Part shown: piece after piece, positions 8,013-9,839 of the stretch | Layout: the number at the start of each line of letters is the position of its first letter | How positions within the stretch are numbered: the first letter of the stretch is position 1 | Translations under genes and position numbers: made by a program | The notes under the pieces: generated by a model | What the model saw: the letters and a program-made list of their open reading frames with translations, nothing else | The model's database searches: none | Told to the model about the DNA's origin: nothing | DNA from: a virus | Lineage: Duplodnaviria > Heunggongvirae > Uroviricota > Caudoviricetes | IMG/VR virus record: IMGVR_UViG_2531839531_000010 | Span: 1-9,839 of that record | DNA length: 9,839 bases | Strand: one strand, 5' to 3'

Positions 8013-9839
8013 ATGTCTGTAGTGATATCAGGTGCGCTGATTGATGGCGCAGGCATCCCCATGTCCGGATGCCATATTATTCTGAAATCCCGGGTAAACA
8101 CCTCAGAAGTGGTGATGCGCACAGTTGCCGACGTGGTGACAGGAAACTGTGGCGAGTACTGTTTTAAGGCGCAGACCGGAAAATATTGCGTATATCTGAA
8201 ACAGGACTGGCGCGACGAGTACTATGTTGGCGACATTGCTGTATACGACGACTCAAAGCCCGGCACGCTGAACGACTTTCTGACTGCCCTTGATGAAGGC
8301 GATTTAAAGCCGGATGTAGTGAAACGATTTGAGGAAATGGTGGTGCAGGCACAGCAGAGTGCTGAAATCGCAGCATCATGTGCAGAACAGGCAGGGCAAA
8401 TATTAAATAACATCCAGGAGGTTGCAGGGCAGCTTTCCACAGTACGCTTCGAAAATTTTAACGATATTAGCAGGCGGTGTACGACAGCCATGCTGAAGCT
8501 GGAACAACCCGAGGTTGTTAATACATCAATATCTTTAAAAATAAAAGAAAATATCGATTTTAATTATGTCGGTGCAGTTAACGGATATTGCGATATTCCT
8601 GAACCTGAAAAGTATAAAGTCGAAATGTATGCTTATACAACTGGAGAGTATTTTAACGGCGACGCTAATTTGAATAGTGAAGGAACTTTCTATTTCAGAC
8701 GTTGCTGGACGGGAGCAAAACAGTTTCGTCTTATTCGGATTGAGGATAATGCGTGGATCACAACGCTGGAATTTCCGCTGCTCATTCGTAGTTACTGGAT
8801 GCCAGAGGACGCAGATCCTGACGTGATCAGGGTGATGAAAGACCGATGTTACACGTATGACCAGGCGCTGGCAGCACTGGCGTTGATGGTTCAGCGACAT
8901 GAAGCTGTGGAAAGATACGTTTCAGGTTTGTGTGCACTTGTTGATGAAAACGGCGGGGTGAAATTTTTTGTTAACAGGCTGTCGGCCATGTCTTCGCGCG
9001 CCTATTATCGACTGGGCAATGCGGCATGGGTTTACTATGCCCTTGCGTTCTATCTGGAGAAATACCCGGACGGAGCACAGGTAAATATTGTTCGGGCAAA
9101 GTTGTTATCTGGCATCAGCTGGCTGGATTCTTTCCTGGTAACCGCCCCTGGTGATTTACGTGAAGGCCTGTATAAAGGCGGCCTTGGTCGTTATGTAAAT
9201 GGCGAATTTGACGCCAGTTTCGTTGCCGAATGGTGCGCACTGGAGCATAACGTTGATATCTGGTTTTTGTTTGAACTGATGGGGAGACTGGAATTTGACG
9301 GCTTCATTCAACGCGCCGATGCGCTGGCAAAAAGTATCATCAGGGGGTTCTGGATGGAAGAGGAAGGCCGGTTCCGGCAGGGAGTACACCCAACCAGTTA
9401 TGATAACGCGGCGGCTCTTGATCAATCGTCATGGGGCGGGCTGTTTGTAGCGAATATAGACATGGCTAAAGCTGTACGTTGTCGTAAGTATATGGGGCGT
9501 TTCTTTTTTGGCACCCGCGAAGCCACGGGTTACACACCTTACCACCCCGATTATGGATACAGTGGTCACAGTCGAGGTGTATGGGTGGAAGGGACCGCAG
9601 GAGTGGCACTTTTTGAGAGAAAGCTTGGAAACGAGGTTACAGCAGTGAATCTCATTGCAGCAATGGCACCGCTTCGTGATGAATACGGCTATCGTGATTC
9701 ATGCGATGACCCGGCATATGATGTGCTCCCACCCTGGCCATCAACAACAAACACGGCGTGGGTAATCCTGACAGTAAAACCTGATAATTTTTGGCTGGTA
9801 GATTCACCGATCATGGACGTTGGCATGATTCGATACTGA
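8013..9839 (+). CDS. Side tail fibre-like protein: lambda Stf-type N-terminal anchor fused to a non-fibrous, helix-rich C-terminal domain (possible carbohydrate-active or receptor-binding domain)
   Basis: The N-terminal ~120 aa (MSVVISGALIDGAGIPMSGCHIILKSRVNTSEVV...GKYCVYLKQ...IAVYDDSKPGTLNDFLTALDEGDLKPDVVKRFEEMVV) parallel the lambda Stf N-terminus as I recall it (MAVKISGVLKDGTGKPVQNCTIQLKA...TVYEDSQPGTLNDFLCAMTEDDARPEVLRRLELMV). The C-terminal ~370 aa is rich in W/Y/F-containing helices and lacks the Ala/Ser-rich fibrous repeats of Stf. The ORF ends exactly at the window end with a TGA stop. Confidence 0.8.
   Translation: MSVVISGALIDGAGIPMSGCHIILKSRVNTSEVVMRTVADVVTGNCGEYCFKAQTGKYCVYLKQDWRDEYYVGDIAVYDDSKPGTLNDFLTALDEGDLKPDVVKRFEEMVVQAQQSAEIAASCAEQAGQILNNIQEVAGQLSTVRFENFNDISRRCTTAMLKLEQPEVVNTSISLKIKENIDFNYVGAVNGYCDIPEPEKYKVEMYAYTTGEYFNGDANLNSEGTFYFRRCWTGAKQFRLIRIEDNAWITTLEFPLLIRSYWMPEDADPDVIRVMKDRCYTYDQALAALALMVQRHEAVERYVSGLCALVDENGGVKFFVNRLSAMSSRAYYRLGNAAWVYYALAFYLEKYPDGAQVNIVRAKLLSGISWLDSFLVTAPGDLREGLYKGGLGRYVNGEFDASFVAEWCALEHNVDIWFLFELMGRLEFDGFIQRADALAKSIIRGFWMEEEGRFRQGVHPTSYDNAAALDQSSWGGLFVANIDMAKAVRCRKYMGRFFFGTREATGYTPYHPDYGYSGHSRGVWVEGTAGVALFERKLGNEVTAVNLIAAMAPLRDEYGYRDSCDDPAYDVLPPWPSTTNTAWVILTVKPDNFWLVDSPIMDVGMIRY

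Follow-up and report, generated by a model that had tools for sequence, protein, structure and literature searches.

A chimeric side tail fibre-type protein of a Rac-family prophage joins a lambda Stf-type anchor to a module with a predicted alpha/alpha-toroid fold

A Rac-family Escherichia coli prophage, part of which lies on a 9,839-nucleotide stretch of DNA (the window; positions 1 to 9,839 of IMG/VR record IMGVR_UViG_2531839531_000010, a virus of the Caudoviricetes), encodes a chimeric receptor-binding protein of the side tail fibre (Stf) type, in which an anchor like that of phage lambda Stf is joined to a C-terminal module of a quite different kind. The gene is a complete open reading frame (ORF) on the plus strand (8013..9839, from an ATG to a stop codon at 9837-9839) specifying 608 amino acids. 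On balance, we take the product to be a virion-anchored receptor-binding protein of a contractile-tail prophage, with a head that binds glycan and probably hydrolyses it. The parts of this reading differ in strength: that the function is directed at glycan is very probable, that a glycan bond is actually cleaved is somewhat favoured, and the protein is likely to be present in virions. Eight complete E. coli genomes carry the gene at 99.8-99.9% identity, where it is annotated as a "prophage tail fiber N-terminal domain-containing protein," and full-length genes with at least 80% similarity at the DNA level were found in 20 of 5,426 complete E. coli genomes.

No fibre-repeat family of Pfam matched the residues beyond the anchor, and the Ala+Ser+Thr+Gly content of this part of the protein is 0.22-0.28 and its aromatic content 0.14-0.16, compared with 0.35 and 0.08, respectively, in the fibrous Stf (tail3) of Rac-SA53. 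This agrees with an earlier annotation made by a model from the letters and ORFs alone (the sequence-only reading), which had remarked on the lack of Ala/Ser/Thr-rich fibrous repeats. An AlphaFold2 (AF2) monomer model built from 30 homologues (mean predicted local distance difference test score [pLDDT], 78; predicted template modelling score, 0.71) consists, beyond the neck, of a beta-sandwich followed by twelve helices. The beta-sandwich (residues 144-262; 8442..8798, plus strand), delimited by the AF2 strands at 174-253 and by the point at which homologue alignments begin, marks the start of the portable module and leads into a predicted (alpha/alpha)6 barrel (residues 263-608; 8799..9836, plus strand), the helices of which mostly have pLDDT values of 85-98. 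When the model was compared with the PDB by using Foldseek, the matches with E values of 1e-7 to 1e-5 were GH78 rhamnosidases, a GH15-like dextran dextrinase, GH63 and GH76 enzymes, a GH8-like amylase, and AGE-family isomerases (GH, glycoside hydrolase). The module is thus confidently predicted to be a beta-sandwich plus an (alpha/alpha)6 toroid with carbohydrate-active enzymes as its structural neighbours, much as the sequence-only reading had guessed. The three aromatic-rich segments quoted there map to the predicted helices at 334-350, 410-425, and 469-480, and although that reading was right about a helical domain, the barrel begins at ~263-269 and not at residue 240, the residues from 144 to 262 forming the beta-sandwich.

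Residues 130-608 match PHROG families labelled "tail fiber protein," and a search of viral folds in BFVD returned essentially two whole-module matches, F9VHN7 and F9VHR4, most of the others covering the anchor only. Hidden Markov model (HMM) searches against glycoside hydrolase and lyase families, suggested as a check in the sequence-only reading, were negative, so that the module, as judged by its sequence, belongs to no named CAZy-type family. A beta-helix spike was considered and rejected, there being no Beta_helix or pectate-lyase match and the AF2 model being a beta-sandwich plus a helical barrel.

To what extent the predicted barrel resembles an enzyme is best seen from its conserved residues. 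A HMMER search of 1.84 billion cluster representatives gave 487 relatives of the module (E up to 0.001), and conservation was read from an alignment of 62 of these at ~25% identity. Invariant or nearly invariant in this alignment are R259-S260, Y282-D283, R333, G335, W407, E411-H412-N413, D415, W447, D464, D470, W474, W524, E526, G527, and W583. Many of these fall into four short motifs, all encoded on the plus strand: Y282-D283-Q284-A285 at the N terminus of helix 281-293 (8856..8867; Y282 in 62 and D283 in 61 of the 62 members); E411-H412-N413-V-D415 at the N terminus of helix 410-425, with candidate catalytic carboxylates (9243..9257; E411 and H412 in 61, D415 in all 62); D464 together with L469-D470-Q-S-S-W474 at the N terminus of helix 469-480 (9402..9434; D464, D470, and W474 each in 61); and W524-V-E526-G527 just before helix 528-537, with a further candidate catalytic carboxylate (9582..9593; E526 in all 62, W524 and G527 in 61). 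The motifs that hold most of the conserved residues lie at or just before the N termini of helices 281, 334, 410, 469, 528, and 578, which are alternate, presumably inner, helices of the barrel, and the six carboxylates so placed (D283, E411, D415, D464, D470, and E526) are each present in at least 61 of the 62 members, as are H412, R259, R333, W407, W447, W474, W524, and W583. The inner helices of six-hairpin glycosidases are parallel to one another, the catalytic funnel being formed by the loops at their N termini. By analogy, the mix of carboxylates, arginines, and tryptophans found here is what such funnels look like.

The anchor, at the other end of the protein, is of a familiar type. Residues 1-93 (8013..8291, plus strand) form a Stf-type collar domain, a beta-sandwich with the motif PGTLNDFL at its end, that was recognised by Pfam, phmmer, and Foldseek. 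Pfam family PF08400 (phage_tail_N, "Prophage tail fibre N-terminal") covers residues 1-129 with an E value of 2.4e-61, far exceeding the cut-off of 26.6 bits; the collar domain of lambda Stf (PDB 9e7m) is 45% identical to residues 1-93, PGTLNDFL included (phmmer E value, 1.3e-17); and Foldseek gave a template modelling score of 0.85 for the anchor domain against 9e7m. The match of the first ~120 residues to the lambda Stf N terminus, which had been made by eye in the sequence-only reading, is therefore secure. Apart from lambda Stf, the one solved structure related to this collar domain is that of the "collar spike" which myophage XM1 carries at its neck (7kjk; E value, 0.0014). It was also observed that a Rac-family prophage with a tail sheath nonetheless uses a collar domain of the lambda Stf type (8013-8291).

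Between anchor and module, residues 94-143 (8292..8441, plus strand) comprise a flexible linker (~94-100) and a helical neck (101-140), as assigned from the AF2 monomer model and the lambda Stf layout. In Ur-lambda, the tail tube is encircled by 12 copies of the Stf collar domain, three of which continue via ~10-residue linkers into one trimeric bundle, the linker of lambda Stf occupying residues 92-101 and being followed by the trimeric bundle (PMC12617516). The model of the present protein has helices at 101-118 and 121-140 and pLDDT values below 50 at 92-105 and 116-125, so that, in this monomer model, the low-confidence stretch at 92-105 and the helices at 101-140 parallel the linker and bundle of lambda Stf. 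The low monomer pLDDT in the neck fits an obligate oligomer, and by analogy we presume the neck to be a trimeric coiled coil.

The chimera proposed in the sequence-only reading could be mapped at both of its junctions. The left recombination junction lies at about residues 118-121 (8364..8375, plus strand), where near-identity to the Rac-SA53 Stf is lost: tail3 of Rac-SA53 is nearly identical (~96%) to about residue 120 and unrelated thereafter, and megablast matches to Rac-SA53 and phiP27 stop at nucleotide 354 of the gene. On the right, within 2 bp of the stop codon, there is an ORF fragment (QAQVERNDAIYQRQREMKSELSNLENLKSIRDLRLD) that corresponds to the C-terminal 36 residues of tail4 (Tfa) of Rac-SA53, and the ~700 bp beyond this fragment is 80% identical to the right end of Rac-SA53. 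From these two junctions it follows, on sequence comparison, that a block of ~1.47 kb encoding the new module took the place of the Stf shaft and tip and of the greater part of tfa. The module has also moved between different Stf anchors, as indicated by a comparison with phiSTEC1575-Stx2k, a complete lambdoid phage genome that carries its copy in the J-lom-stf slot: the two anchors are only 45% identical, whereas the beta-sandwiches are 94% and the barrels 86% identical. The ratio of nonsynonymous to synonymous substitution rates (dN/dS) in the same comparison, 0.09 for the beta-sandwich and 0.07 for the barrel, indicates that the module is under purifying selection. GC content dips to 0.38-0.40 over the neck and beta-sandwich region, a dip too modest to be diagnostic.

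The mobility of the module is also apparent from its distribution. In homologues with other anchors, the ~465-residue module begins at the equivalent of residues 144-147, and at least five different anchors precede it: PF08400, PF12571 (tail-collar fibre N termini), PF18668 (Tail_spike_N), PF03406, and a P22-type tailspike N terminus. It is also found behind PF08400 plus Phage_fiber_2 repeats in Salmonella proteins of 907 residues. The full-length architecture of PF08400 plus module occurs on hundreds of contigs and is retained by module alleles that are 83-96% identical in E. coli, Yersinia, and Salmonella and by a Citrobacter allele at 71%. The genomic slots occupied by the module match those of receptor-binding proteins: it lies right after a GpJ-like protein in one prophage, forms the second fibre after a fibre and its Tfa, with no Tfa of its own, in an HP1/Mu-like prophage, and follows the antirepressor genes, at the expected tailspike position, in a P22-like prophage. 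Distant relatives (22-30% identity) come from phages of Microbacterium (two records of which name the relative a "minor tail protein"), from TMA and phiYS40, which infect Thermus, and from a phage of Coprococcus. Some relatives also bear CBM_5_12, PASTA together with Glucodextran_B, or a hub needle of the T4 gp5 type, which was counted among the indirect arguments for an enzyme. For ten distant relatives the source gave either no name or "hypothetical protein," and a second, profile-based search for homologues gave close enterobacterial relatives only.

Several individual cases deserve mention. In a metagenomic protein of 1050 residues (P0131), the module (40-484) lies upstream of Gp5_trimer_C and Gp5_C (917-1021), with a match to PHROG 430, "baseplate hub subunit and tail lysozyme"; T4 gp5 is a tail hub protein that carries lysozyme, and the module of P0131 may likewise be an enzyme domain borne by a tail hub protein. 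In a further prophage by uspF/ompN (locus L009, 1742-4137 and 4255-8911), the tail module also contains an IS66 element and the head module stands behind Tail_spike_N directly after a GpJ-like protein, and the uspF/ompN region seems to gather different phages with the same head cassette.

The module also occurs without any anchor. A 494-residue copy lies amid non-structural genes of jumbo phage ph0011, a 348-kb Asteriusvirus (locus L005, 5926-7410), and a 482-residue copy adjoins PhoH, integrase, and CobT genes on ~100-kb E. coli contigs that are possibly a phage-plasmid (locus L006, 6001-7449). An adhesin would be of no use in such non-structural regions, which argues for an autonomous activity and suggests that these copies are a free enzyme form. 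Furthermore, on Agrobacterium tumefaciens pAt2 (locus L011, 5221-10152) there is an apparent three-gene operon of an HlyD-type protein, a cellulose-synthase-like GT2 protein, and a 426-residue relative of the module (WP_112402622). Membership of the Agrobacterium protein in the family was given by hhalign at 99.6%, and it retains the E411-H412-N413-V-D415 and W524-V-E526-G527 motifs. Its third position, after the HlyD-type and GT2 genes, is the layout of an exopolysaccharide synthase operon and was counted in favour of an enzyme; the operon may be a system in which an exopolysaccharide synthase has a hydrolase of its own.

How might such a protein work? We propose that residues 1-93 would dock on the tail, with residues 94-100 as the linker and the helix at 101-140 as a trimeric neck, as in Ur-lambda, and that each trimeric stalk would bear three heads composed of beta-sandwich and barrel. 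The pocket of the barrel would be lined by D283, E411, D415, D464, D470, E526, H412, R259, R333, W407, W447, W474, W524, and W583. The heads would bind an enterobacterial surface polysaccharide in this conserved funnel and most likely hydrolyse it, the outcome being reversible attachment and local clearing of the glycan layer, after which the gp37-like upstream fibre or the baseplate would engage a final or second receptor. Near-identical alleles of the gene are found in E. coli O169:H41 and O27:H7 strains (known as enterotoxigenic E. coli). More tentatively, and with somewhat less than even confidence, we suggest that the cassette founds an unclassified glycoside hydrolase family of ~490 clusters at 50% identity, without a Pfam or CAZy-type model. 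On this view, enterobacterial, actinobacterial, Thermus, and Firmicutes phages would carry it on fibres, spikes, and hubs as a receptor-destroying head that is not a beta-helix, its cellular members would be dedicated hydrolases of synthase-type exopolysaccharide operons, and its target in E. coli could be a glycan of the matrix or envelope that is widely shared, and not one particular O-antigen.

A number of observations weigh against a hydrolytic, glycan-directed head. The structure is a monomer prediction made from only 30 sequences, with several loops at pLDDT values below 60, and in fold searches non-hydrolytic barrels (epimerases, terpene cyclases, and linalool dehydratase) score nearly as high as the hydrolases. 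No Pfam or NCBIfam model matched residues 130-608; the family profile gave nothing significant against all PDB sequences, its sole match being a terpene cyclase at an E value of 0.088; and a relaxed Pfam scan of 62 members yielded only two sub-threshold matches each to MGH1-like_GH and Glyco_hydro_94. The occurrence of a near-identical allele in both O169:H41 and O27:H7 strains means that strict O-antigen specificity is not evident, and the context of an Azospirillum relative (topoisomerase, FAA hydrolase, and TRAP transporter genes) is uninformative.

The lack of a catalytic family match also counts in favour of a head that only binds its target, a lectin-like domain derived from an enzyme fold that recognises a glycan or another surface molecule and does not cleave it. 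Conservation of the pocket would be expected just as much if what is conserved were a ligand, and loss of activity has been noted as a possibility for some structural proteins that viruses derived from host enzymes (PMC12042106). However, six carboxylates and a histidine that at least 61 of the 62 members keep, in phage tail proteins, anchorless phage proteins, and cellular proteins of very different organisms, are more typical of catalysis than of the binding of one ligand, and the anchorless copies have no obvious use as adhesins; we therefore think a purely binding head unlikely. Less likely again is a glycan enzyme other than a hydrolase, that is, a polysaccharide lyase (PL), an epimerase or isomerase, or a transglycosylase, although AGE epimerases, dextran dextrinase, and the PL8 lyases, which DepoScope classes as alpha/alpha toroids, share the fold. 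AGE-family enzymes use two or three conserved histidines, whereas only one is conserved here, and the combination of a beta-sandwich and barrel with many conserved carboxylates and tryptophans fits hydrolases of the GH15, GH63, and GH78 types better.

Two further explanations deny that the module is a working head at all. The gene is the last of the prophage and is followed by a Tfa remnant of 36 codons, and there is an IS66 element in the tail module of the window's strain, all of which would suit a non-functional deletion fusion at the end of a decaying prophage that is not assembled into virions. We consider this very improbable, given that the full-length architecture is found on hundreds of contigs and in the classical J-lom-stf slot of phiSTEC1575-Stx2k, that diverged alleles in E. 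coli, Yersinia, Salmonella, and Citrobacter stay full-length, and that the start of the module is a domain boundary common to all of the other anchor types; the mobility of the module and its purifying selection (dN/dS, 0.07-0.09) argue in the same direction. The sequence-only reading had itself raised the prospects of a beta-rich fibre or knob and of an intramolecular chaperone. The predicted fold is neither fibre nor knob, and the idea that the C-terminal region is a cleaved intramolecular chaperone or assembly domain is scarcely credible to us: some fibres and spikes do terminate in self-cleaving chaperone domains, and the downstream Tfa chaperone gene has been lost here, but Pfam gave no match to Peptidase_S74 or another chaperone family, the 465 residues have an enzyme-like fold with the C-terminal helices belonging to the barrel, homologues use the module as a head and it also occurs as an autonomous protein, and nothing lies between neck and module that could act as the head in its place. 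A glycan-binding, probably glycan-hydrolysing head on a Stf-type anchor thus remains the reading that we prefer.

The rest of the window and its surroundings show the setting in which this protein would act. From 2363 to its end, the window is 99.9% identical to E. coli F9792. The Rac-family prophage lies between ttcA/intR and uspF/ompN, encodes recET, kilR, lysis genes, and terminase, and has a contractile-tail module with a sheath (PHROG 205), a baseplate hub, and Baseplate_J (window 4223..5449); the presence of the sheath, the gene for which is at 31390-32727 of locus L003, implies a contractile tail, unlike that of lambda. Directly upstream of the chimeric gene are a conventional tail fibre of 461 residues (6056..7441, plus strand), which matches PHROG 6859 and 454, "tail fiber protein," and Pfam gp37_trimer and is the equivalent of Rac-SA53 tail1, and a tail fibre assembly chaperone of 181 residues for this upstream fibre (7444..7989, plus strand; Pfam Caudo_TAP E value, 6.5e-24; PHROG 136). 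The element therefore encodes two different receptor-binding proteins, as the sequence-only reading had supposed. The layout is shared by Rac-SA53 (tail1 to tail4), in which slot 3 is filled by a Stf of 1061 residues followed by a full Tfa gene.

A complete IS66-family element occupies window positions 1-2362, with genes at 7..396 (HTH_Tnp_1), 393..740 (TnpB_IS66), and 790..2328 (DDE_Tnp_IS66). F9792 lacks IS66 at this site, and homology resumes in the intergenic gap after a bppV-like baseplate gene; the insertion may alter tail-gene expression in the window's strain. At 3007-4182, among the baseplate genes, the window encodes a 391-residue protein with an HSDR_N domain (type I restriction R-subunit N-terminal, PD-(D/E)XK-like; PHROG 4225, "endonuclease"), where Rac-SA53 has ant, rac61, and rac62 on the opposite strand, and the position looks like a moron or defence-gene slot within the tail module. 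Elsewhere in the prophage (locus L003, 23884-25320), a gene for 478 residues right after the terminase large subunit, the usual portal position, is named "anti-CBASS protein Acb1 family protein" in RefSeq, which may be a misannotation or reflect a fusion.

Modular receptor-binding proteins with enzymatic heads are already known, and the modular logic seen here is expected; the head family, by contrast, is unannotated and apparently unstudied and spans phages of several bacterial phyla. Within the library searchable to us, we found no paper or experiment on the module family or on an (alpha/alpha)6 or six-hairpin phage fibre (two "toroid" matches were set aside because they concerned DNA packing or nucleoid shape), and a literature search for Rac-SA53 gave no relevant study. 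Prediction of phage host range and depolymerases today rests almost entirely on beta-helix and beta-propeller heads, and the module family would give the alpha/alpha toroid class a well-delimited, mobile example. An active module would provide a further enzyme family with which to engineer phage host range and possibly to degrade an enterobacterial surface or biofilm polysaccharide, and it would explain how a fibre gene came to dispense with the Tfa chaperone. Material for tests is at hand in the E. coli genomes, in the phiSTEC1575-Stx2k copy, and in the anchorless versions, which may be easier to express.

Compared with lambda Stf (9e7m) and Rac-SA53 tail3, the protein has in common the collar domain, a predicted flexible linker with the beginning of a predicted helical neck, and a gene that closes the tail module, but it lacks the long coiled-coil or gp37-like shaft, the distal tip, and a functional downstream Tfa. 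Stf-type proteins consist beyond the neck of a shaft and a tip folded with Tfa, whereas here a globular module begins at residue 144 and the downstream Tfa is reduced to 36 codons; in addition, this phage has a sheath and a contractile tail, and lambda has none. With the six-hairpin glycoside hydrolases (GH15, GH63, GH76, GH78, and relatives), the module shares a predicted (alpha/alpha)6 barrel. Identity to the GH15-like dextran dextrinase (9ju0), a glucodextranase (1ulv), a bacterial glucoamylase (1lf6), and the MmpH endo-mannosidase (7qsj) is only 10-13%, no HMM-level relationship to these enzymes was found, and unlike them, the module is tethered to a phage tail anchor. MmpH itself was reported to be closest to the GH15 glucodextranase (PMC9883506).

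Among viruses, the alpha/alpha toroid is a rare putative depolymerase fold, being assigned to 11 of 984 phage proteins by DepoScope, the training of which excluded it for too few instances (PMC11326577), and to 29 of ~3,900 depolymerase-domain sequences in a survey of Klebsiella prophages (PMC12491483). The alpha/alpha-toroid references of both surveys include PL8 entries (PMC11326577, PMC12491483), and the two phage proteins of the family that we checked, WCJ00198 and WAE77027, are absent from the DepoScope supplements. The tailspike VP4 of SSV19 (7xdi) differs in belonging to an archaeal fusellovirus with a sevenfold tail, in its size (137 kDa), and in its anchor, with no detectable sequence relationship, and the activity reported for SSV19 was demonstrated on whole virions, not on isolated VP4. 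The closest parallel in organisation is with the beta-helix tailspikes (P22 gp9 and the CBA120 tailspikes), which likewise join a short, phage-specific N-terminal anchor to an exchangeable, polysaccharide-directed head and the slots of which the module fills, including the P22-like tailspike position and positions behind the PF18668 Tail_spike_N anchor. The module, however, is no right-handed beta-helix; it would probably be displayed as three separate globular heads and not as an intertwined trimeric helix.

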